A stretch of DNA of 29,603 nucleotides from an uncultured virus (IMG/VR IMGVR_UViG_3300033145_003180) (IMGVR_UViG_3300033145_003180), one strand, 5' to 3'. Positions 2,743 to 25,880 are shown, counted from the first letter of the stretch. The notes: generated by a model not told the origin, from the letters alone. Numbers and translations are program-made.

Positions 2743-3171
2743 TCAACCAACCTTTTTTAGATACTTTGGTGGGATCTTACCTAAAATACATGCAGATCCT
2801 TCATCCTTCCATCGTTTCCAATCTTCAGGTTTTTTTGACCAATCCTCATCGGGTCTCATTCTAGTATGAAATTCTTTAACATCTGGGATTTTAACTTCTA
2901 TTATTGGAAAATTACTACGCTTGGCGTCTGGATCGACATCTAACATCTGGTTTTGATTTTCTTTTGCTTGCCATTTGACAGCAAATATATATGTCCCAGT
3001 CCAATATGGTTTGTAACACTGCCATGGCCCACTTTGAGTTCCTGGCACCATTCCTTGTTTTTTAATCTTATTCCAAGAATCATTATCTGTTATATGATAT
3101 CCTATTATTGCAGGAACGCATTTTCCTTTATGTATAACTTGATTAACTGGGCAACCATCACGTTTGGCCAC
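2743..3171 (-). CDS. tagged ADP-ribosyltransferase-fold (Tpt1/ART-like) protein
   Basis: N-terminal MAKRDG-Cx10C tag; GYHIT...IKKQGMVP, GTYIF, IIEVKIP, IPPKYL pattern of ART/KptA-like folds; GTG start. Confidence 0.6.
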   Translation of the reverse strand: MAKRDGCPVNQVIHKGKCVPAIIGYHITDNDSWNKIKKQGMVPGTQSGPWQCYKPYWTGTYIFAVKWQAKENQNQMLDVDPDAKRSNFPIIEVKIPDVKEFHTRMRPDEDWSKKPEDWKRWKDEGSACILGKIPPKYLKKVG

Positions 3172-3172
3172 A

Positions 3173-4111
3173 TCAACCAGCCGTCCTCGGTTTAATTCTT
3201 TCCCCCGTCTTCGGGTTATAGTTCATGATCATGAGCTCAGTGACATCCTTCTTCTTTCCCCGCATTCCTTTATTCGAACTCTGCATCTCATATTTTGTGT
3301 CATGCTTCTTTTTTTTCCATTTGCCACCATTAAATGCCCTGCGAACTTCAGGAACATTATCATAAGAAACTAGAACTTTACCTTTCATCTGATTGGCACA
3401 CCCTGCGACATCATTCGGATGGACCTTCGGCAATCCATACTTATGAGGAGTATCCCAATACGGTGGATCTAAATAATGGAACGCATCCTTGGAATCGTGC
3501 TTTTTCATCACCGTGCAAAAATCATCACTCTCAATAACAGTATGATTTAGTTTTTCCTGGAACATATCAGCATTTGAAATAATCCTGGTCATCCTTGAAG
3601 TGGATTTAAACTTCTGGTTATTTGGTCTGTCTTCAATTATTGGCATATTGAAGATCATGCCTTTTGCTCCATAAGACCTTTTCATGACTTTTAGATAGTC
3701 GCATGCATCTTGGTATGTACCATCTTTCCGGGCACTTGCCTTTGCCGCCTCGAACTCTTTTTTAGTGGTTGGAAGCCTACAACCCACAAGATTAGACGAG
3801 GGCCGTTTCTGGACATCCCGATAAAACTTGACAAGCGCAGGATCCATATCATTAATGACGGTCTTATCCTCGGCCAGAGGAAGATGCCAATAAAGAGTCC
3901 CACCACCAATAAAAGGCTCAACATATGTTTTATGATCAGGAACATGATCCACGAGTTTTTTCTTTAGCTTTGTTTTACCGCCGACACGGGCTACCATAGG
4001 AGGCATCCCTGCAAGACCATCCCGGCGCTGAATATTAGCCCTTGGAATGTCCCTAACGCATTTTCCTTTCTCATTATGAAAACCTGATCTGCAACCATTT
4101 CTCTTTGCCAT
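3173..4111 (-). CDS. D12-class (Dam-family) N6-adenine DNA methyltransferase with N-terminal tag
   Basis: GGKT, YVEPFIGGG, INDMD, YLDPPY, SYDN, TELMIMNY motifs; N-terminal MAKRNG-Cx10C extension. Confidence 0.92.
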   Translation of the reverse strand: MAKRNGCRSGFHNEKGKCVRDIPRANIQRRDGLAGMPPMVARVGGKTKLKKKLVDHVPDHKTYVEPFIGGGTLYWHLPLAEDKTVINDMDPALVKFYRDVQKRPSSNLVGCRLPTTKKEFEAAKASARKDGTYQDACDYLKVMKRSYGAKGMIFNMPIIEDRPNNQKFKSTSRMTRIISNADMFQEKLNHTVIESDDFCTVMKKHDSKDAFHYLDPPYWDTPHKYGLPKVHPNDVAGCANQMKGKVLVSYDNVPEVRRAFNGGKWKKKKHDTKYEMQSSNKGMRGKKKDVTELMIMNYNPKTGERIKPRTAG

Positions 4112-4128
4112 AATAATCTACCTAAAAA

Positions 4129-4449
4129 TTATTTTCCAGGAACACCAAATCTTTTATATTCCTCGGTGAGTTTTTCCCAGTCCTTCCCTTCAGTCTTTGC
4201 CTCTCGTACAGATGGAAACACATCACTGAACATATGAGCCTTATCGTGGTTTTTTATCTTTGCATTAAATATATCAAGATAAATATCATCCTTCTGTTTT
4301 GTGATATTCATATCATATCCCTTTGATAATCGTTGCCATGAGTTTTTCCTAATTTTACGCCAGACACCATCACGAAGTGGTATGCATTTTCCTTTGACTC
4401 TTTTATATCCAATTTTACAGTACCTTTTACATCCAGCTTTTTTAGACAT
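4129..4449 (-). CDS. tagged hypothetical protein
   Basis: MSKKAGCKRY-CKIGYKRVKGKC tag. Confidence 0.8.
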   Translation of the reverse strand: MSKKAGCKRYCKIGYKRVKGKCIPLRDGVWRKIRKNSWQRLSKGYDMNITKQKDDIYLDIFNAKIKNHDKAHMFSDVFPSVREAKTEGKDWEKLTEEYKRFGVPGK

Positions 4450-4451
4450 CG

Positions 4452-4790
4452 TTATCTCCTTTTGGGTTGTGCCTTCTTAAGTTTTTTAATGAGATCTTCC
4501 CCTTCCTTCCAAGACGGGGAGGAATGCCCCATATTTTTCATAAATTTGATATGCTTGTCCGCCTCTTTTATCAAAGCTGATTTATTACTGCAGGTTATCT
4601 CAGCCGTGTCTCCCTCAGTATAAGAAAATATCTTTTTTGTTTTAGGATCAATGACAGCCCAATGATAAGGCGCGGTGTAATAAAGTTCTTTATACCCCTG
4701 CCTTCTCAACTTTGATAATAGACTAAAATCTTGACCATCCGTACTTAAAAAAAATCCTCTCTTTATTTTACATCCTGCTTTTTTTGCCAT
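4452..4790 (-). CDS. tagged hypothetical protein (short tag)
   Basis: ATG at 4790 gives MAKKAGCKIKRG; second tag Cys absent. Confidence 0.8.
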   Translation of the reverse strand: MAKKAGCKIKRGFFLSTDGQDFSLLSKLRRQGYKELYYTAPYHWAVIDPKTKKIFSYTEGDTAEITCSNKSALIKEADKHIKFMKNMGHSSPSWKEGEDLIKKLKKAQPKRR

Positions 4791-4793
4791 CAA

Positions 4794-5096
4794 TCAATAC
4801 CTCCTACTTGATCTACGTTTTTTAATGTCCTTTTTAACCTCTTTGATCACCCATTGCTCACCATGCCCCTCATCCAAAGCATAAAGCTTGTGTTCAAGGC
4901 CCACCATTGAAAGTTCGTTATTCTCAATTTCATTAACATGCGGTCTGTCATCCAGTGGTGTTTTCATAATATGGTCACGATAATGTTTATGTCTTAAAAA
5001 TCTTGAATGTGTCTGGCCCCACCAATTTGGGGATACGCCAATACATATTCCCTGCACTCTTTCCTGCCCAAATGGACAACCTTTCTTTTCAGACAT
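4794..5096 (-). CDS. tagged hypothetical protein
   Basis: MSEKKG-CPFGQERVQGIC tag. Confidence 0.8.
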   Translation of the reverse strand: MSEKKGCPFGQERVQGICIGVSPNWWGQTHSRFLRHKHYRDHIMKTPLDDRPHVNEIENNELSMVGLEHKLYALDEGHGEQWVIKEVKKDIKKRRSSRRY

Positions 5097-5435
5097 TTAA
5101 GCTTCCTCAATAATTCTTCTTTTTAATGTTGTCATATCTCCTCGTTTAATCATATTTCTGGCCCCACCTAATTTACTATCAGGAATGGACCAATAACCAC
5201 TTGGAGATTTTTTATAAATCACATATCCTTTATAATCACCAGTTACTGCTATGCCAGGGATTTTGCTATTTCTATGCCAATCACCCCATCCATCGCTTTT
5301 GTAAGCAAAAAAACCAATGTCTTTCATTTCTTTATATCCGCGTTTTGCCTTTATCGGTCTAAACAATTCAGTTTTTTTAACACATTTATTATTAAAACGA
5401 ATATGCCCTTTACCGCAACCTGATTTTTTTGCCAT
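5097..5435 (-). CDS. tagged hypothetical protein
   Basis: ATG at 5435 after GGTGA; MAKKSG-CGKGHIRFNNKC tag. Confidence 0.8.
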   Translation of the reverse strand: MAKKSGCGKGHIRFNNKCVKKTELFRPIKAKRGYKEMKDIGFFAYKSDGWGDWHRNSKIPGIAVTGDYKGYVIYKKSPSGYWSIPDSKLGGARNMIKRGDMTTLKRRIIEEA

Positions 5436-5440
5436 ATCTT

Positions 5441-5746
5441 TCACCCTAAATGTTTTTCGATAAATGATGCTCTGTTCTCTGGGGAAATCAAAGCAAAATT
5501 TCCACCTGATTTGATATTTAATGAACGCAACGCAATCCGTTCACGATCTGTGAAATTACCAAAGTCACCGCTACCACTAATTTCTACCCAACCCCAAGCA
5601 GTACCTTGACCATTACGAACAGAAACAGTTTTTGTTTTACCCTTGACAATTTTACGGATTGTAGAAATTTGTTGCTTAGTATCCATAGGAGTACATTTAT
5701 CCTTTATCTTTACTTCACCCCATGTGCAACCACTTTTTTTAGCCAT
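5441..5746 (-). CDS. tagged hypothetical protein, first gene of the operon
   Basis: ATG at 5746 gives MAKKSG-CTWGEVKIKDKC; the ORF-track extension to 5848 overlaps the promoter. Confidence 0.8.
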   Translation of the reverse strand: MAKKSGCTWGEVKIKDKCTPMDTKQQISTIRKIVKGKTKTVSVRNGQGTAWGWVEISGSGDFGNFTDRERIALRSLNIKSGGNFALISPENRASFIEKHLG

Positions 5747-5776
5747 GACACCAATAACACAAAATAATAACAGTTC

Positions 5777-5804
5777 TTTTAAAGTTATCCAGGAAATATT
5801 TCCG
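5777..5804 (-). promoter_or_regulatory. palindromic operator plus TATA promoter of the tagged operon
   Basis: Minus strand CGGAAATATTTCC-TGGATAAC-TTTAAAA, about 30 nt upstream of ATG 5746; recurs at 18997-19025 and 17719-17750. Confidence 0.7.
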
Positions 5805-5856
5805 ATAAATATCAAAATTGATTTTATCGCCATAAAATTAAAAATCAATAGAAAAA

Positions 5857-6195
5857 TGACGGCTTCCGCAAAAAATGATGGCTTTTATGCACAGTTTCTG
5901 ACCTTTTTCATTAGAAGTAATGAAGGCTTTGACGGCTTTAAAAATAGGTAGGGCACCATGCAGGCTTGACGGCTTGACGTTGCCTTTATAATTATATTAA
6001 TAGATCTAATAGTAAATTTTTATTATTGCCATAATAGATGTATTTATAACTCCAGCTTAAGGTCAGCTAGCCCCAGCTATTAAATATTAACGATTAACAT
6101 AAAGGAAAAAATTAGTCGTCAAAGCCGTCAGCACCCCCGTTGAAAGTGTGCATAAAAGCCTTCATAAACCAGTCATATTTTTTTATAAGCCGTCA
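5857..6195. other. putative replication origin (inverted iteron clusters around an AT-rich core)
   Basis: TGA(C/A/T)GGCT at 5857, 5876, 5921, 5930, 5967 (+) and 6123, 6157, 6188 (-); 23-bp inverted repeat 5876-5898 / 6142-6164 with 2 mismatches; AT-rich centre ~5985-6050. Confidence 0.65.
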
Positions 6196-12127: not shown

Positions 12128-14689
12128 TTAATCACCAGAAAACAAACGTTTAAGAATATCCCAAGAAGAAACACTTTTCACAACTTGTTCAATATAATCT
12201 TCATCAATATTATCATTTTCATCCATTGGGATAAAAATCTTTATTTTGTCAATTTTATTTTTATATGCTTTTCTACCATAAGAAAAACGCCATTTTAAAC
12301 GATTTAGTTCAGAAATCAAGTACATTATCGTTGTAAATTTATATTCCTCTTTTGGAAAACAAACCAATACATTATCTTTCGCACAGAATTTATAATAGTG
12401 ATAGAACGTGCTTAACGGCATACCATCTGAAGCAATAGTTATACTCTTATCATAGGTCGTTTTAATAGCTACATCCTTATTTCTTTTCTTAACAAATATC
12501 TGATCTTCAACATCAACATAAGTTTCAACACCATCATTTATAGAAGAACAGGAAATTAATGGAATATCGCCATCATCTAAACTACCACTAACATGATAAA
12601 AACCCGTATCTATCGGTGTTTCAAAAATATCTGAAATTGGAATTTCTTTAACTTCAATATTACTTGTTTTTCCCTTAGCATCAGAAGAAAAAATATTTTC
12701 CTTATCAATGATATTTTCCCTGAAATCCTTTTCTTTATCAGAATTGATAAGGTATGAAAGGAGATTTCGTAAACAATAATCTATGTCTAGTTTAATTTTT
12801 TCTTCAGATGGTTTTTCTTCATCAAGATATACTTCTGGCACAAGTTCCAACATTTTATCGTTGAAATCTATCGGACATGCCTTTTGAAGTTCTTGAATAT
12901 TATCTACATTAATAGTTGGATTGATTAAAAATGATGTTAATACGCCTCTTATTTTCTCAAAATCATTTTCTATTTTTGAATTAGGCAATCTTTTACCTTT
13001 ACTTTTTAAAAATCCATCATTCAATGCTCTAATCCATAATACATTTTGTTTTTTATCATGAGGCACACCTTTTTTTATAAATATCCCAACACTATGAACC
13101 CCTATTGGATAAAAAAGGTCAAAAGGAAAAGTAATTCCAGATAGTAATGTATGTTTTTTCAGTAATTCCTTTCTCCATGTCAAAAAACCTGCTGATTTGA
13201 CCAAATTTGAATAAGGTAATATCGAAAACAGGATACCGCCATCTTGCATTTCATCTAAACCATAATCAACAAATTGATATGCTTTTTCGCTTTCATCTTT
13301 AAGGGCAAATGGTGGGTTCATTAATACTTTTGTAACGGCATCAATTTCTTTATCATCATTCTTCTCTTTTTGTTTTTTCCTTATCTTATTTTTATCCTCC
13401 TTCTTGATATATTTAGCAGATGAATCGGTTTTTAACAGGCTGTTCTTAAAACAATTACCTTCAATAATGTTGTTTTTACCATCACCTCTAAAAATCATAT
13501 TCACTATTGCTAATGAAACAACCTCATCATCTTGTTCTATTCCAAATAAATTCTTTTGTTTAAACCTATTCAACTGTTGCATATTTGCATTTTTTCTTAC
13601 GTGGTCAAATGATGCAACAAGAAATCCACCTGTACCACAAGCAGGATCAAGAATAATATCATTATGTGTAACATTCATTACTTCAACTGCAAATTTCGTA
13701 ATATGTCGAGGCGTTAACACAATACCTATCTCTTTTGCACCATTCCCATATTTCAAAAAAACTTCATAGAATTTTCCAAGTATATCAGTCCCTGATTCCA
13801 TTGCGGATCGGATGTTTATACTTCTAAGTTGTTGAATAGTATCTACTAATGCTTTTCTATGTTTATGATGATTATCTGATTTTGTTGGTAATGCTAATTT
13901 AATAAAATCATAAAACCTTGGTTTTCCCTGTTTATCTAAAACATTGCTCACTCTTGTATTTATATCATTGATTAAAACGCTTGGAGATGAATCAATGATT
14001 AAGGGATTTTCATCAATCAATGATAATAGCAATGCAGACATCACTCTTGCTCGTTTATTCTTATTTATTGCTCCTCTATGCAATATTTCATTTATTTTTT
14101 CTGCTTTTTGAAGAAACAGTCTTTGAAATCGGTCATCAAAAGGTAACTCTTCAATATCAGGTTTATTATTTTCAATAATTGATAATAACTGTTCTTGAAT
14201 TAGAAAACCAGAAATATTTCTCTTGTTTATGGTTACTGGATGAAAATGTTTTCCATCGAAATATTCAGTTTCAATAATATAACCATCATAATCATTCCCT
14301 GCAACACCCGAAACAAAAGCAACTTGGATTTGATCGCTTTTATTGATTTTTTCCGCATATTGTTCTTTCGCCTCTTTTAATGCCTGATCTTTTTGCCTAT
14401 GTTCCTTTTTTGATTCAATAACCCATAACTTTGTTTCTGTTACTTTAACAATAGCCTCTGGTCTTTCTTTATCAAGAAATTTTTTAATCTCTTCATTTTC
14501 AAGGCATTCGTTTTGTGTATAAACTTGTCCTTCTGGATCACGTTCTGGATTTTTTGTATTCCATCCAAGATTCCTTAATTCATCTCTGATAAAAATATAG
14601 GCGTTGACTTCTGTTTTTCTTGGTTTAGGTAATTTGTTTTTTTTGTTTTGAATTGATTTGCCATTCTGTTTTTTTTGAGTTTCTACCAA
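12128..14689 (-). CDS. fused restriction-modification enzyme (Type IIG/BcgI-like: nuclease, N6-MTase, specificity domain)
   Basis: N-terminal PE...IESKK nuclease-like motif; LTPRHI, ILDPACGTGGFL, MNPPF; C-terminal HsdS-like TRD (IPLISCSS..DG, RFSYGRK). Confidence 0.88.
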   Translation of the reverse strand: MVETQKKQNGKSIQNKKNKLPKPRKTEVNAYIFIRDELRNLGWNTKNPERDPEGQVYTQNECLENEEIKKFLDKERPEAIVKVTETKLWVIESKKEHRQKDQALKEAKEQYAEKINKSDQIQVAFVSGVAGNDYDGYIIETEYFDGKHFHPVTINKRNISGFLIQEQLLSIIENNKPDIEELPFDDRFQRLFLQKAEKINEILHRGAINKNKRARVMSALLLSLIDENPLIIDSSPSVLINDINTRVSNVLDKQGKPRFYDFIKLALPTKSDNHHKHRKALVDTIQQLRSINIRSAMESGTDILGKFYEVFLKYGNGAKEIGIVLTPRHITKFAVEVMNVTHNDIILDPACGTGGFLVASFDHVRKNANMQQLNRFKQKNLFGIEQDDEVVSLAIVNMIFRGDGKNNIIEGNCFKNSLLKTDSSAKYIKKEDKNKIRKKQKEKNDDKEIDAVTKVLMNPPFALKDESEKAYQFVDYGLDEMQDGGILFSILPYSNLVKSAGFLTWRKELLKKHTLLSGITFPFDLFYPIGVHSVGIFIKKGVPHDKKQNVLWIRALNDGFLKSKGKRLPNSKIENDFEKIRGVLTSFLINPTINVDNIQELQKACPIDFNDKMLELVPEVYLDEEKPSEEKIKLDIDYCLRNLLSYLINSDKEKDFRENIIDKENIFSSDAKGKTSNIEVKEIPISDIFETPIDTGFYHVSGSLDDGDIPLISCSSINDGVETYVDVEDQIFVKKRNKDVAIKTTYDKSITIASDGMPLSTFYHYYKFCAKDNVLVCFPKEEYKFTTIMYLISELNRLKWRFSYGRKAYKNKIDKIKIFIPMDENDNIDEDYIEQVVKSVSSWDILKRLFSGD

Positions 14690-14691
14690 AA

Positions 14692-14847
14692 TTACATCCC
14701 ACCATTTTTCTTGATATAATCCTTAATTAATTCTTCAAGAATTGTACTGGCATAGCGATTTCCATGTTTCCCAACAACTATAGAACAAAACTTATTCCAC
14801 AACTCCTTATCTACACTAATAGAAGTATTTATCTTTCCATCCGACAT
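14692..14847 (-). CDS. ribbon-helix-helix regulator upstream of the RM gene
   Basis: ATG 14847 after GGTGAG; NTSISVDKELWNKF...S.ILEELIKDYI. Confidence 0.7.
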   Translation of the reverse strand: MSDGKINTSISVDKELWNKFCSIVVGKHGNRYASTILEELIKDYIKKNGGM

Positions 14848-15020
14848 CTCACCACTAACCCCACTTGCCAATACTTGTAATTGATCGTTCATTTAATTAC
14901 CTTTTTACCCATATGTCTTTATACCGCTATATATTTATAAATATATGCCGATATGTTTATATACCCATAAGACATACCTATTATGTTTTGAATTTTGAGT
15001 TAATCTGTTCTTTATCCATT

Positions 15021-15242
15021 TCAACCAAAAAGCTCTTCAAACCATCCTTTTTTTGTTTTCTTTGGTTTAGGTTTATACGACCCAAGAATTTGTCCTTTTC
15101 TTCCTTGTGAAGTTGTCCGTTCCCTCAATTTATAATATTTTCTTGTTTTAGGATTATAAATTCTCTTTTTTACCATTATCAAAAAATTCATAGCTTTTAA
15201 TATGATATTTAGTTTTCGATTTATTTGATTTAATTTTACCAT
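15021..15242 (-). CDS. small basic hypothetical protein
   Basis: ATG after GGTGG; Lys/Arg-rich; true start may be the internal MVKKRIYNP. Confidence 0.5.
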   Translation of the reverse strand: MVKLNQINRKLNIILKAMNFLIMVKKRIYNPKTRKYYKLRERTTSQGRKGQILGSYKPKPKKTKKGWFEELFG

Positions 15243-15267
15243 AGCCGAACCACCTTTGATACACCCC

Positions 15268-15314
15268 ACTAAATTTTACATACTAGATTTGCCACACTCA
15301 AATTTTACAGTACC
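15268..15314 (-). repeat. right terminal inverted repeat
   Basis: Reverse complement GGTACTGTAAAATTTGAGTGTGGCAAATCTAGTATGTAAAATTTAGT. Confidence 0.9.
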
Positions 15315-15618
15315 CACTAGTCAATGGTGTATTTGAAAATAAAATATCATGTATCTTTCTATGCAATCCATCAACTGGGAAATTAATATTGTTGATAAAC
15401 CCCACTGACTTGAATGTTTTGTCCATCTGGTCATAGCTTTCTCTTATTGCTGAAACAATATCTGTTAGATCTCCCAATATGTATTTGTGGATTTTTTTAT
15501 GACATTTTTGGCAGAGTGGCACGGTTTTATTCCATTTAGGAATTATACTTCTCGGTACTGTGTGGTGATCTTCAATTGCATCCATATCCTCTTCTTTACA
15601 CATTATACAACGTTTCAT
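15315..15618 (-). pseudogene. 5' half (HNH endonuclease domain) of the interrupted HNH-wH gene
   Basis: CIMC...EDHHTVP...LCQKCHKKIH; currently terminates inside the TIR at 15298. Confidence 0.82.
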
Positions 15619-15659
15619 AATACATCCACCATTATTATAAGGAGAACACCCCATATTTT

Positions 15660-17045
15660 TTAAAAGTTATTACTTAATTTATACCTGCGATACAAATAAC
15701 CAAGGCGCTTTCCATTCTCCCGCCCAAGTGAAAGCACCTTTCCAATACTCTTATGTTTTGTTTTCAACCCCATATTTTTCAGAATATACCCAAGTTTCTG
15801 CTTATCTTTCTTATCTTCCCACCCTAGGCCTTCACAAATATCAGTTACCTTGATATCATCTGGTGCATCATCCAATGTTGCACACTCCCTGTAATTTTTG
15901 ATCACCCTTAATACTTCATATTGAATAGTTCCCTGCAGTTCCTCTTCCGCATCCTTTTCCTTTTCCTGTGCGAATTTTATAACATCGTCTACTTCCTGAC
16001 CGATGTGTTTTCCTGTTGCGATTATGCTTTCATATACCTCTCTCGTCCGGCCTGTTAAAATAAATGAACGCCCTAGATCTGGTGGGTCACCTGTTTTATA
16101 TTTATAGTTCAGAAGCATGGATCGTATTATGGCAAGTTCCTCCTCAAGATATTCCATCTTTGCTGCAGGTGGGATTGATTTCTCCATGAAAACGTCTATT
16201 CCCCTACTTACAAGTGCAGGATCAAAAGATTTCTCACCCGCAAATGCTTTGAACCCAAAATTATGCGTGGCGATAACTTCCTTTTGGTTATTTAGATCCG
16301 AACTTATATAGACAGATCCTTTTTTATAGCTCTGTTTTATAAAATCCAGTAATTGCGCTCCGCTTTCATTTCTAGGGTTCAGTCTGTTGTTCGCCTCATC
16401 TATTGTAATGCTGATATTCCAGTATTCGCTCAATCTGGATAATGCCGAGAAACTTACAATCGCAGCTGGAACAGAACGATATGCCAACGCCTGTATGACA
16501 TTTAACGCTCGAGTTTTTCCACTGCCTATAATCCCTCTAAAAACTGGAAAACCAACTGTCTCCCAGCATTCCTGTTTCCATGTACTTATAATCCAGAGAG
16601 TAAAAATTTTGTAGAGTATCTCCTCTGGAAAAATCACAAGTTCATGCATAACATTGATTATTGTATCATATATTTCAAAAGGATCCACTTCGCTCTCTTC
16701 CCACACCGGGAGTTTCCATATATCCGTTTTTATGATTCCTGTTAATGCTTTAAAAGTCGCTGTCCTCCCACACCCGCCTTGTTCTTCATAACATACTGCG
16801 GGTTCGCCTGGGTTCGATTCAATAATACAATTACATCTTTGGCATTTCCAAAGTCCCTGTTTTTTTGTATAAAAGACGGTTTCTGTCTTTGGCGGTAATG
16901 GATCAGTCACTACGTCTTTTACATCCCTTCCGCTATCTTGAGCAACCTCTCTTTCTTTTATAAAAAGCCAACATGGTTCACCATTGAAAATTACTGGTTC
17001 TTTAATCTCCTTCACTTCTTTAATGGGTTGAAGATTAGTAGACAT
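15660..17045 (-). CDS. P-loop ATPase, putative replicative helicase/Rep with zinc finger and C-terminal winged helix
   Basis: CQRC...C...C zinc motif; Walker A GIIGSGKT; Walker B ITIDEA; ALVSR Arg finger; wH tail. Confidence 0.75.
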   Translation of the reverse strand: MSTNLQPIKEVKEIKEPVIFNGEPCWLFIKEREVAQDSGRDVKDVVTDPLPPKTETVFYTKKQGLWKCQRCNCIIESNPGEPAVCYEEQGGCGRTATFKALTGIIKTDIWKLPVWEESEVDPFEIYDTIINVMHELVIFPEEILYKIFTLWIISTWKQECWETVGFPVFRGIIGSGKTRALNVIQALAYRSVPAAIVSFSALSRLSEYWNISITIDEANNRLNPRNESGAQLLDFIKQSYKKGSVYISSDLNNQKEVIATHNFGFKAFAGEKSFDPALVSRGIDVFMEKSIPPAAKMEYLEEELAIIRSMLLNYKYKTGDPPDLGRSFILTGRTREVYESIIATGKHIGQEVDDVIKFAQEKEKDAEEELQGTIQYEVLRVIKNYRECATLDDAPDDIKVTDICEGLGWEDKKDKQKLGYILKNMGLKTKHKSIGKVLSLGRENGKRLGYLYRRYKLSNNF

Positions 17046-17241
17046 TGCGGTTTTCCCCCCTCGGAAAGCAACTTATAAAATTAGAACCAAGCCCTATAAT
17101 TACATCTTTAACTACAATATAATTGCTGTCCAGATTAACTTCATTCAGTACTCCAATAACAGCTTTTGTTTTACCATCATCAACATAGAGTACCTTAACT
17201 ACACTACCTAACAAATTTTGAAAATGATTGTTATCTCCCAT
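17035..17241 (-). CDS. Sm/LSm-fold-like small protein
   Basis: LLGSVVKVLY.DDG.....GVL.EV....IVV pattern; overlaps the helicase start. Confidence 0.55.
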   Translation of the reverse strand: MGDNNHFQNLLGSVVKVLYVDDGKTKAVIGVLNEVNLDSNYIVVKDVIIGLGSNFISCFPRGENRNVY

Positions 17242-18649: not shown

Positions 18650-18967
18650 TTAATCTTTGACACACTTTTCTGCCTTTGAGCTCCATTTTTGTCCTACTGG
18701 GCACCCATCTATTCCATGGGCATGTAATAATTTATGACCTTTTAACTTTGCAGAGCGTTCATTTTTGTATATGCTGGCAATATCTCTCTCACGCAATCCC
18801 CCGCCAACCTGCAACATCATTCCTTTGACATTTGATTCAAATACGATATCGTTAAGGGTGCTGTCTTTAGAGGGATTTGTCACCACCCAAAATGATGGCA
18901 TGTCTGCATCCACTTGTATTCTTTCTGCTGTTTTTACCATCTCTTGGTATCTTTCTTGTTCATCCAT
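18650..18967 (-). CDS. hypothetical protein with C-terminal copy of the Cys tag
   Basis: Ends DG-CPVGQKWSSKAEKC-VKD; ATG 18967. Confidence 0.75.
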   Translation of the reverse strand: MDEQERYQEMVKTAERIQVDADMPSFWVVTNPSKDSTLNDIVFESNVKGMMLQVGGGLRERDIASIYKNERSAKLKGHKLLHAHGIDGCPVGQKWSSKAEKCVKD

Positions 18968-18996
18968 TTTTATCAATAATGGAAGTGCAAATCCAT

Positions 18997-19957: not shown

Positions 19958-21129
19958 AAATAGAACATAAAATAATAATAAAAAACATACCTGATGAATT
20001 TATTAGATGCAGAGAATGTGATAGACCATTCAAAAAGATAACTATCTCTCATTTGAATAGTAGACATGGTACAACTATGGAATTGTATCGTAAGAAACAT
20101 CCAGATGCGCCATTAGTGTGTGCTGAAGTACTATTAAAAAGTAGTAAAACAATGAAAAAAAAGTTTGAATCAGATCCTAAATGTTTTGAATATCTTCAAG
20201 AAGCAATTACACCTGAAAAAAGGAAAGAAATACTTAAAAAAGCATTATCAAAAGAGTCGATAAAAAAAAATGTAGATACGATGAGACTCATCCGTGAAAA
20301 AATACCCGAAGTTCAGGAAAACTATCATAAAGCAATGGAAAAAGTGTACGCCGATAGAACATATGATGATGTGTATTTAATTGAACAATATAATATGGTT
20401 AAAAATAAATTGGGGCATGTTCCTTCAACATTAGAAATTAAAGAACATACGGGTATTAGTGTAGGACCATATACTCGGCGTTGGGGCTCTTTTAATGATT
20501 TTGTTTTGAAACAAGGTGATATTCCAAAAAAAATGTATCAGATAACTAAGAAGGAATATATCGAAGATATAAAACGAGTATGGAATGAACTTGGCCATCA
20601 ACCAACTATAAAGGAATATGATAGTCATGGAAGATTTCATAGTAGTACATCACATAACAAATTACATATGCCTTGGGCTGATTTATTGATTAGTCTTGGT
20701 GGTGTTAATCTTGGTTTTCTAGTGGGAGGATACAATAAAATATCCAGAGAGAAATTAGAAAAAGAATACGTCAAAGTTAGAAAAATGATCAATTCTCCAT
20801 TAACCCAAGATGATATGATTAATACTGGTAAATATTGTTGTGCTCCTTATGCTAGAGAATGGGGGGCATTTTCACAAGCAAGAAATTATTTAGAGAGGAA
20901 ATATTTTAATAAACAATACAATGAAGAAGAATTTATGAAAAAACTCATGTCGGAAAGAATATCATATTCTCATAGTAAGAAAAACAAAATTTTGTTACAA
21001 AAAGCGATAGAACTACATAATGATGGGTTTAATCAATATGAAATTGGAGGGAAAATAGGAGTTAGCCAAGCGACAATATCTAATTGGTTGAAAAACTTGC
21101 GATCTATGATGAAGATGCACAGTAATTGA
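19954..21129 (+). CDS. multi-domain DNA-binding protein (MucR-like zinc finger, homing-endonuclease-associated repeats, HTH)
   Basis: CRECDRPFKKITISHL..RHG; repeats LGH.P(S/T)..E...Y.R.WGSF; C-terminal QYEIG.KIGVSQATISNW HTH. Confidence 0.75.
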   Translation: MKIEHKIIIKNIPDEFIRCRECDRPFKKITISHLNSRHGTTMELYRKKHPDAPLVCAEVLLKSSKTMKKKFESDPKCFEYLQEAITPEKRKEILKKALSKESIKKNVDTMRLIREKIPEVQENYHKAMEKVYADRTYDDVYLIEQYNMVKNKLGHVPSTLEIKEHTGISVGPYTRRWGSFNDFVLKQGDIPKKMYQITKKEYIEDIKRVWNELGHQPTIKEYDSHGRFHSSTSHNKLHMPWADLLISLGGVNLGFLVGGYNKISREKLEKEYVKVRKMINSPLTQDDMINTGKYCCAPYAREWGAFSQARNYLERKYFNKQYNEEEFMKKLMSERISYSHSKKNKILLQKAIELHNDGFNQYEIGGKIGVSQATISNWLKNLRSMMKMHSN

Positions 21130-22034
21130 ATGATAAAAAAGGAGATATGAAAAATATGACACAACAAGGATTAGATGAAGCAAAAGAAAATAAAGAAGAA
21201 AAGAAGCAGTTGACACCGCCAGATAAGGCCAAGCTTTTATTGGAGCTAGATTTTAGGGAATCAACGGAAAAACATGGGTTGTGGTTTAAACATATAGATG
21301 ATAACACAGTATTTTTCTGGAGTTTTCAAAAGGTAAAAAAGGGCACATCTTGGTGTAATAGAGATAGAGTAAAGATCTCTGATGAAGAGAAAAAATCAAT
21401 GGTTGAATATACATACATACATCAGGAAATAATCGATGGCCAGAAAACCGAGACAAAAGAAAAGAAAACAAGGATCACAACTCCTAAATCTGATGAGAAG
21501 GCGTTGGTACCTGCAGACAGACAGAAATTCATACGTGGCACTGAAAGGGATCTCATACGTCTAATGGATGAAAAGATACAGCTTGATTCTATTATTGCCG
21601 CGTCTAGTGACAAAAAGAAACTTGGTGAGGGCATGCTCTGGCATGAATTAAAGTTTGGCGATAAAACCAGTGTAGAACCATCGGCAGAACTTGTTGATAT
21701 GATGACGTTGGATATGGGGAGCATCAATACCAAAATTGTGGAGTTCGATACTAATATTCTTGAGGATCCAAATTCACATAAAAAATATTTGACGTATTAT
21801 TGCGTTGTAGAAGCAATGGATGGTGTTTCAAGAACTTCAGGTCTTGGGGCAGCAGAACAGATAGTTGATTTTACAGATATTACAAGCAGAGGGCGAACGT
21901 TCGCTCGTACAAATGCAATCCGCAAAGCTGAGAGAAATGCAAAAGAGCGATTGATCCCGATACCAAGAAAAGCAATGGTGGCTGCGGTTCGTAAAAAACT
22001 CCAGGAACATGCAGATAAACAATCAAAGAATTAG
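21126..22034 (+). CDS. putative Rad52/Rad22-like single-strand annealing protein
   Basis: C-terminal VEAMD......G.G.AEQ...FA.T.A..KAERNA...LIP pattern; start may be ATG 21147. Confidence 0.5.
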   Translation: MNDKKGDMKNMTQQGLDEAKENKEEKKQLTPPDKAKLLLELDFRESTEKHGLWFKHIDDNTVFFWSFQKVKKGTSWCNRDRVKISDEEKKSMVEYTYIHQEIIDGQKTETKEKKTRITTPKSDEKALVPADRQKFIRGTERDLIRLMDEKIQLDSIIAASSDKKKLGEGMLWHELKFGDKTSVEPSAELVDMMTLDMGSINTKIVEFDTNILEDPNSHKKYLTYYCVVEAMDGVSRTSGLGAAEQIVDFTDITSRGRTFARTNAIRKAERNAKERLIPIPRKAMVAAVRKKLQEHADKQSKN

Positions 22035-25118: not shown

Positions 25119-25880
25119 ATGTTAGGAGAATTATATAAACCAAAAGGTCTTGCATTGGAGACAGCGTCAGCGGTATTCCAATCAGAGAATGTCCACGCCT
25201 GCAATGTTGCATGGGGTTGTACTAATTGCTGTAAAGACTGCTATATCCAATATATCAAACGAGGGCATATACGATATCCAAAGGAAAAACCAGGCAACCT
25301 GGTTGAACATCAGTTGAAAGGTGGTTTTAAAACAGATGGTGTGTTTATTAGCTTCAATACAGATCCATTACTGCAAACAAACATGATTAATACAGTTAAT
25401 CTTGTTATGGAACTCCGGGAACGATGTATTCCTGTTGCTATTTTATCTAAAATGGGGCATGTACCTATCTCTAGTTTCAATTTTTGGCATAAGAAAATTG
25501 ATATCAGACATGGTATGACGATTAAATCTGGTGATGAGAAGTTCAGGATGAAATTCGAGCCAAATGCAAAACCCATCAATTTTAGAATAACAGAGTTAAG
25601 GGATTTGCATCTTGATGGGGAATATACATGGGTATCCGATGAACCACATCCATGCCCTGCACTCTATAAGCAGAACGATCAGAAGTTTTGGGAGAGCATA
25701 AATTTTGTTGATTTTATTATCTTCGGCAAATGGAATTATAATAAACTGGCATCCACACCTGAATCGAGAGATTACTATAGTGAAACCGTGCCGAAGTTTA
25801 TCGATTTCTGCAATGATCATGGGATCCGGTATCATGTTAAATCCGAAACAATGGATTTTATTAAAAAAGAGGTGATATAA
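25119..25880 (+). CDS. radical SAM protein (spore photoproduct lyase-like clade)
   Basis: N...GCTNCCKDCY (CxxxCxxC), S..TDP, ILSK, FEPNA, WVS.EP. Confidence 0.82.
   Translation: MLGELYKPKGLALETASAVFQSENVHACNVAWGCTNCCKDCYIQYIKRGHIRYPKEKPGNLVEHQLKGGFKTDGVFISFNTDPLLQTNMINTVNLVMELRERCIPVAILSKMGHVPISSFNFWHKKIDIRHGMTIKSGDEKFRMKFEPNAKPINFRITELRDLHLDGEYTWVSDEPHPCPALYKQNDQKFWESINFVDFIIFGKWNYNKLASTPESRDYYSETVPKFIDFCNDHGIRYHVKSETMDFIKKEVI

Follow-up and report, generated by a model that had tools for sequence, protein, structure and literature searches.

Within a stretch of 29,603 nt from an uncultured virus (IMGVR_UViG_3300033145_003180), hereafter called the window (29.6 kb, about one third of a 91.6-kb contig), seven back-to-back genes on the minus strand (2743-5746) encode proteins that share a tag of about 20 residues at their N-terminus. 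The tag is a modular, terminal label that is conserved at the level of the protein and fused to diverse, cysteine-poor cargo. Our tentative reading is that it serves as an adaptor at the protein terminus: a basic knob, stapled by its cysteines, through which many unrelated accessory proteins would reach a common partner or place. The operon had been pointed out in an earlier note made from the sequence alone; the observation is confirmed here and is stronger than first described.

The genes of the operon are separated by only 5, 0, 3, 2, 17 and 1 nt (Table 1). A Shine-Dalgarno (SD)-like purine run lies 5-10 nt upstream of every tag methionine, which makes the starts of the operon genes credible. 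Public gene calls lengthen gene 1 upstream to 130 residues (P0005; window 5441-5848, minus strand), a call that is probably wrong because the gene 1 orthologues P0001, P0168 and P0169 all keep the tag and begin at its methionine. The products of genes 1, 2, 3, 6 and 7 start with M-[AS]-[KE]-[KR]-x-G-C-x10-C. In gene 5, the insert CKRY adds a third cysteine, resulting in C-x3-C-x10-C, and the tag is recognized by a sequence profile with an independent E-value (i-E) of 1.5e-5. The profile aligns to the first 8 positions only of gene 4 (E 0.35, not significant). The N-termini are thus exactly as quoted in the earlier note, and its cysteine spacing of 10 in six of the seven proteins holds as well, with five plain C-x10-C tags and gene 5 keeping the spacing despite its insert. 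Its count of seven tagged genes has to be read as six full tags and one degenerate remnant.

Table 1. Tagged genes of the operon and a look-alike open reading frame (ORF) elsewhere in the window (window positions).
Feature	Position	Strand	Description
Gene 1	5441..5746	-	101 aa; tag 5690-5746, bacterial-PH-like cargo
Gene 2	5097..5435	-	112 aa; tag 5379-5435, cargo without family match
Gene 3	4794..5096	-	100 aa; tag 5040-5096, helical cargo without family match
Gene 4	4452..4790	-	112 aa; degenerate tag (MAKKAGC only) 4770-4790, cargo without family match
Gene 5	4129..4449	-	106 aa; tag 4381-4449 with 4-residue insert, cargo without family match
Gene 6	3173..4111	-	312 aa; tag 4055-4111, linker of ~17 residues, orphan D12/Dam DNA adenine methyltransferase
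Gene 7	2743..3171	-	142 aa, GTG start; tag 3115-3171, cargo without family match
Look-alike hairpin, possible C-terminal tag copy	18650..18976 (hairpin ~18653-18706)	-	108 aa; G-C-x12-C-VKD-stop; by regular expression only, profile E 1.6

The profile was built from 36 tags and searched against the window ORFs, the metagenome loci described below and a protein library. It retrieved six window ORFs at i-E <= 1.5e-5, all of them within the operon, and no window ORF outside the operon was significant. The consensus reads M-[SAT]-K-K-x-G-C-P-x-G-[QY]-x-K-[VI]-x-G-K-C-[VI]-[PK]; M1, G6, C7 and C18 never vary among the 36 tags, and more than 90 % of them have G10. In nearly all cases the tag lies 4-5 residues from the methionine. 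Two adjoining ORFs that start with MGC- (15021-15269 and 15298-15654, both minus strand), the second of which encodes an HNH endonuclease, are unrelated to the tag by profile.

The codons of the invariant glycine, cysteine and lysine residues vary from gene to gene (GGT/GGA, TGC/TGT, AAA/AAG), so conservation acts at the protein level, as had been proposed. A degenerate DNA pattern of the tag had three matches in the window, where 0.00 would be expected and 0 of 100 shuffles gave as many, and these pattern statistics together with the differing codons led us to reject chance or recent duplication. After trimming of the tags, no pair among the seven operon proteins was related (BLASTP, E <= 1e-3). 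The dissimilarity of the downstream domains is thereby confirmed, full-length paralogy of the cargo proteins, which the earlier note had considered, is rejected, and its claim of a tag stands. A lipoprotein or signal peptide was rejected too: none of 37 tagged library proteins showed a Sec, Tat or lipoprotein signal peptide with a hydrophobic core, defined as a 12-residue window with a mean hydropathy of at least 1.8 within the first 60 residues. A sulfatase-type cysteine motif was rejected by eye, with proline at +1 and not at +2 in most tags.

The tag recurs on variable cargo in metagenomes. A 41-bit DNA pattern of the tag produced 12 matches in 10 metagenome loci (L001-L010), whereas the tag pattern had no match in one genome per prokaryotic species and two such patterns had none in IMG/VR. 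The densest locus, L001, carries 11 tagged genes by regular expression, or 10 by profile, within 7.2 kb; L003, L007 and L010 carry six each. Pooling of window, loci and library matches resulted in 72 non-identical N-terminally tagged proteins. In 71 of these the cargo is 25 residues or longer, and these cargos group into 39 families (48-312 residues, median 101). No two cargos within any one locus are related.

Orthologues of genes 1, 2, 3, 6 and 7 on other contigs retain the tag in all cases. Besides the three of gene 1, these include P0012 for gene 2, five aligned tagged orthologues of gene 3, P0014 (90 % identity) and L010:3129-4055 (64 %) for gene 6, and P0018 (74 %) for gene 7. Tagged proteins are encoded on further long contigs of 45.6, 37.2 and 16.8 kb. 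Conversely, P0170, encoded on a 30.4-kb contig, contains the gene 1 cargo at 56 % identity behind a different, tag-free N-terminus, which indicates that the tag is modular. The module is also found at the other end of proteins: a C-terminal copy of the hairpin was detected in L010:5014-5451 (i-E 3e-3) and in its L008 counterpart (i-E 1.7e-4), and three further C-terminal look-alikes, the window ORF listed in Table 1 among them, were found at the level of the regular expression only.

The cargo of known function is encoded by gene 6, which matches PF02086 at residues 43-270 (E 1e-20, 75 bits against a cut-off of 22) with the DPPY motif present in the translation, while the NCBIfam model dam spans residues 36-297. 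Homologous Dam proteins of phages align from residue 36-58 onward only, so the tag and linker of gene 6 represent an add-on of about 35 residues. By the matches taken together, the Dam domain begins at residue 36-44. Neither the gene neighborhood nor PADLOC revealed a nuclease partner adjoining this methyltransferase. The cargo of gene 1 exceeds the cut-off of the Pfam family bPH_4 slightly (E 2.9e-5, 24.5 bits against 22.9), and the cargos of genes 2, 3, 4, 5 and 7 had no match in Pfam, PHROGs, NCBIfam or PADLOC. With 39 families, retained tags in orthologues, the tag-free P0170 and the truncated Dam alignments, the modular label on varied cargo proposed in the earlier note is borne out.

The cargo proteins are poor in cysteine. 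Of the 71 cargos, 59 are cysteine-free, and the cysteine fraction is 0.39 % compared to 1.70 % in 32 other window ORFs. At the level of families, 30 of 39 are cysteine-free against 10.1 expected, a count that is suggestive rather than a clean statistic because the families come from few related elements. This economy argues that the cysteine pair of the tag does specific chemistry that stray thiols would disturb.

One form of such chemistry would be a modification handle, in which a radical S-adenosylmethionine (SAM) enzyme with a SPASM domain, encoded by the element, recognizes the tag and acts on its cysteines by cross-linking or conversion, comparable to the leader logic of ribosomally synthesized and post-translationally modified peptides but applied to whole proteins. 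Enzymes of this kind (32.9 and 40.5 bits against a cut-off of 27) are encoded at L001:258-1442 and L010:301-1392, both on the plus strand and in convergent orientation to the 3' end of the tagged array. They are 49 % identical, and their best family matches include peptide maturases. A shared cysteine-bearing end followed by variable remainders recalls multi-precursor clusters, and cysteine-poor cargo would spare off-target chemistry. However, no match to a named maturase comes anywhere near its cut-off, and the enzyme occurs in only two of the five contexts of at least 7 kb (L001 and L010, but not the window, L003 or L007), a linkage that may be inherited synteny because L001 and L010 are related. 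The sole radical-SAM-like ORF of the window (25119-25880, plus strand) is of another type; its product of 253 residues contains C-x3-C-x2-C and weakly matches NrdG-type activases, a DNA-repair photolyase and 'radical SAM mobile pair protein B'. Moreover, a conserved lysine-rich protein of 75-86 residues with one cysteine (L010:1451-1678 and L001:3060-3320, both plus strand) is an equally good substrate candidate. We therefore regard modification of the tag as very improbable. The lysine-rich protein of L010 directly follows the SPASM enzyme, and the two may be an enzyme-substrate pair of their own. In L003 and L007 the position of the radical SAM gene at the 3' end of the array is taken by a TnpB/OrfB_IS605 gene and a LAGLIDADG endonuclease gene (L003:2271-4566, L007:2082-4377).

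The part of the tag that contains both cysteines resembles small hairpin motifs. No Pfam or NCBIfam model covers this core, and the echoes of small disulfide motifs are at chance level, those in Pfam being the EB module, CC, EGF-like and GBP_PSP families. Of 60 canonical tags, 56-60 contain the pattern C-x2-G-x(4-6)-G-x-C. The sole sequence match in the PDB is 5w54, an insect stress-response peptide of 25 residues, in which residues 8-22 align to positions 7-21 of the tag. The insect ENF, GBP, PSP and stress-response peptides have the same core pattern and length as the tag, with marginal matches (E 0.031 for 5w54, E 2.9 for GBP_PSP). Structural look-alikes in the Atlas are EGF-laminin-type hairpins and cysteine-rich repeats, weak at template modelling (TM) scores of 0.5-0.6 over 21-27 residues, and Atlas feature matches of 0.77-0.80 correspond to chance. 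AlphaFold2 models were poor, with a mean predicted local distance difference test (pLDDT) score of 43.8 for gene 7, which is unusable, and 55.2 for gene 3; both place two short strands at the tag.

A search with the tag profile over the library of 1.84 billion representative proteins resulted in 197 matches at E <= 1e-3. Among the best 150 of these 197, 23 are small N-terminally tagged proteins (20 identified by regular expression, three by eye), and 124 proteins, mostly long, contain at least two copies of the core (profile positions 7-21), with up to 16 stretches per protein matched by the profile. The repeat unit has the consensus C-P-x-G-[QY]-x-L-[VI]-N-G-x-C-V-P, which is nearly equal to the tag. 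It represents an unnamed two-cysteine hairpin repeat, C-P-x-G-x5-G-x-C-V-P, found in 3-16 tandem copies in long, mostly signal-peptide-bearing proteins among P0019-P0167 (for example P0019, P0053 and P0054). In Pfam and NCBIfam the repeat has no model of its own and evokes just faint similarity to the EB module, CC and EGF-like families. An N-terminal hydrophobic segment is present in 71 of the 107 multi-repeat proteins that start with methionine, but in 0 of 37 tagged proteins. Unlike the tag, hairpin peptides and the repeats of long proteins are secreted or signal-peptide-bearing, occur as free peptides or repeats, and are less basic; homology and convergence cannot be told apart from these sequences. 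Taking the core for a small hairpin that its two cysteines close is the simplest interpretation. By analogy the closure may be a disulfide, although metal binding or enzymatic cross-linking could close the pair as well.

In their logic, the systems closest to the tag are the 2-cysteine adaptor (PF08793) of giant viruses (nucleocytoplasmic large DNA viruses) and a basic adaptor domain specific to Paramecium bursaria chlorella virus (PBCV). The former is described as a short domain with two conserved cysteines that large DNA viruses attach to enzymes of unrelated kinds; its bearers are virion- or DNA-associated, and it was proposed to mediate specific interactions (PMC6163548). The PBCV domain is likewise described as short, basic and fused to unrelated enzymes, with virion- or DNA-associated bearers and a proposed part in specific interactions (PMC3281028). 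Two invariant cysteines and fusion to unrelated proteins, here 39 cargo families, are found for the tag as well, on elements that are only putatively viral. Differences exist as well: in contrast to the giant-virus adaptors, the tag is strictly terminal and single-copy, and the elements that encode it have a prokaryotic layout with SD-like sites and overlapping operon genes. None of eight window proteins matched PF08793 at E <= 1 and none of 21 locus proteins at E <= 10, in searches where most matches with E above about 0.1 are lost to the HMMER filters, and the precomputed Pfam fields were empty for 14 tagged small-protein matches. We take the likeness between the tag and the PF08793 motifs to be one of general impression. 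In a narrow search of the open-access literature, no account of such a tag from prokaryotic elements came to light. The statement of the earlier note that no equivalent has been described needs qualification in two respects: the giant-virus adaptors share the logic, and the hairpin core is the unit of a widespread repeat in long proteins.

The tag is basic: in 60 tags the net charge of residues 1-20 averages +4.5 and varies between +1 and +7. The lysine-rich hairpin might act as a clip that binds DNA, RNA or acidic lipid directly, so that the cargo would be concentrated on the nucleoid, on incoming DNA or at the membrane in the absence of a protein receptor. The sole cargo of known function acts on DNA, and kinases of PBCV-1 that carry the basic adaptor domain have been listed with the virion proteins that associate with DNA. 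In ascovirus P64, the N-terminal half with four 2-cysteine adaptor motifs precipitates DNA; the authors of that study, however, credit an arginine-rich insert. Charge alone would require neither the invariant G6, C7, G10 and C18 nor the fixed C-x10-C spacing, and no nucleic-acid-binding family was matched. In addition, the related repeat units are far less basic, with leucine and asparagine where the tag has lysine, which indicates that the fold does not exist for charge. Direct binding to polyanions appears doubtful to us.

A function independent of targeting was also considered: the M-x-K-K lead with its AAA-rich codons could boost translation initiation, and the hairpin could be a folding or stability cap spread by recombination. 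The genes are 0-17 nt apart with an SD-like site each, and lysine dominates positions 3 and 4 (51 of 60 tags each). This explanation leaves the cysteine pair, its fixed spacing, the cysteine-free cargo and the significant C-terminal copy unaccounted for. Furthermore, the DNA of the tag is not conserved, which argues against recent spread by recombination, and we give the idea very little credence.

The earlier note had proposed that the tag loads anti-defense or host-takeover proteins into an archaeal virion or another complex; virion loading in the strict sense is unlikely in our view. In this special case of an adaptor, the tag would bind capsid, scaffold or portal, and the cargo would be packaged and delivered together with the genome. 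An orphan Dam methyltransferase suits the moment of DNA entry, a cysteine pair on cysteine-free cargo suits an oxidizing, extracellular fate, and the small, fast-changing set of cargo genes adjoins the replication module. The nearest clusters of the helicase include tailed viruses, and adaptor-bearing proteins of giant viruses occur in virions. Against strict loading, Pfam and PHROGs revealed neither capsid, portal or scaffold genes nor a terminase large subunit or maturation protease in the 41 ORFs of the window, about a third of the contig, or in the 33 ORFs of the four loci of 7-9 kb (L001, L003, L007 and L010), so that linkage to such genes did not appear in this part. Nor was there a match in IMG/VR for the tag patterns or the protein queries.

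Phage T4 also directs otherwise unrelated internal proteins by a common short N-terminal peptide, and the anti-restriction proteins that phages package, P1 Dar for example, resemble the cargo described here in including DNA-protecting functions. The T4 capsid targeting peptide is not known to contain cysteine and is removed by the prohead protease. The tag differs from it in that neither a cleavage motif within the tag nor linkage to capsid, scaffold or prohead protease was found in the ORFs mentioned above. Encapsulin cargo-loading peptides and the encapsulation peptides of microcompartments are short N- or C-terminal sequences that address unrelated enzymes to one shell; they are not known to contain cysteine, and their cargo genes adjoin the shell gene. 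Here, unlike in those systems, no HK97-fold or shell gene was detected by Pfam or PHROGs.

Other genes of the window characterize the element. It encodes an integrase-like protein (PHROG 1) and a P-loop protein of 461 residues (15660-17045, minus strand) without Pfam match. In the Atlas, the latter most resembles DUF3631-type helicases from phages, plasmids and archaea (feature score 0.97; structure TM 0.6-0.75). A 68-residue ORF (17035-17241, minus strand) overlaps the helicase gene, and the pair, probably the replication module of the element, is conserved in L010:8415-9447 at 46 % and 66 % identity. As L010 shares the helicase, its 68-residue neighbor and the tagged methyltransferase with the window, both represent related mobile elements. 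A single-chain protein of 853 residues (12128-14689, minus strand) combines an N6-methylase with a specificity domain in the manner of type IIG-like restriction-methylases and is preceded by a 66-residue ORF (14692-14892). Furthermore, the window contains HNH and homing-endonuclease-repeat proteins, membrane proteins, a beta-helix protein and a protein of 302 residues without family match (21126-22034, plus strand), whose C-terminal third resembles a single-strand-annealing recombinase by eye. Defense analysis with PADLOC named methyltransferases and one regulator only.

The gap of about 340 bp upstream of the tagged operon contains all five window copies of AGCCGTCA (within 5857-6195; three on the minus and two on the plus strand), compared to 0.23 expected, and none of 100 shuffles reached five. 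The sequence is absent from L001-L010, and its copies may represent operator or iteron sites. Scans of the window for sigma-70 promoters and terminators did not exceed shuffles, and no tRNA or Rfam match was found there.

In the species genomes, 50 pattern matches to the helicase were obtained, none of which tblastn confirmed as a relative. Neither helicase nor integrase matched phage records, and an ASCH protein and the methyltransferase had distant bacterial-phage matches only, which are uninformative on the host. The archaeal origin assumed in the earlier note is hinted at only by the taxa of the look-alike clusters.

How the tag might work can be outlined as follows. Uncultivated mobile elements with an integrase and a DUF3631-type replicative helicase attach a transferable unit of some 20 residues to dozens of unrelated small accessory proteins and one orphan Dam methyltransferase, at the very N-terminus or, in a few cases, at the C-terminus. 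The unit comprises the short basic lead M-[SAT]-K-K-x-G and a probable beta-hairpin closed by the two invariant cysteines, which may staple it through a disulfide or a bound metal to form a small autonomous knob. This knob could dock all tagged proteins onto one common partner or destination, most likely for the purpose that the accessory proteins stay with the DNA or the transmissible form of the element and act together on arrival; delivery along with that DNA or a particle is the most attractive destination. Of this outline, the staple is inferred, as are the common partner and the destination.

Several points speak against such an adaptor. As both structural models are poor, the case for hairpin and staple is made by analogy of sequence and by weak structural look-alikes, and a simple motif rich in cysteine, glycine and lysine could resemble an exported repeat by convergence. 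Since the tagged proteins are devoid of a signal peptide, a disulfide would require an oxidizing destination, and neither the window nor the loci revealed genes for secretion. Neither of them yielded a candidate partner, and the genes for virion structure, packaging and maturation listed above were detected in neither. In IMG/VR, the methyltransferase, the helicase and the two DNA patterns of the tag retrieved no relative and no tag. Finally, the loci are few and mutually related, so the counts of cargo families are not independent.

A bolder version of the adaptor would be a hitherto unrecognized protein-sorting code of an uncultivated, possibly archaeal element or virus, in which the stapled basic hairpin loads dozens of interchangeable accessory proteins, the methyltransferase included, into the transmissible form so that they are delivered with the DNA, and some lineages set the staple by a radical SAM/SPASM enzyme instead of oxidation. 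Taken as a whole, we consider this scenario unlikely.

Regardless of its function, the tag exposes a widespread, unannotated two-cysteine hairpin repeat, with 197 library proteins of which none is named by Pfam or NCBIfam. If it is an address label, a single sequence of 20 residues would mark the whole deliverable or co-localized accessory proteome of uncultivated elements, and the 39 cargo families, one of them a Dam methyltransferase, would represent a list of candidate host-takeover and anti-defense proteins. The tag itself is a candidate for a minimal, transferable targeting peptide, and it may provide a prokaryote-style counterpart to the adaptor domains of giant viruses, whose role has stayed open since their description.

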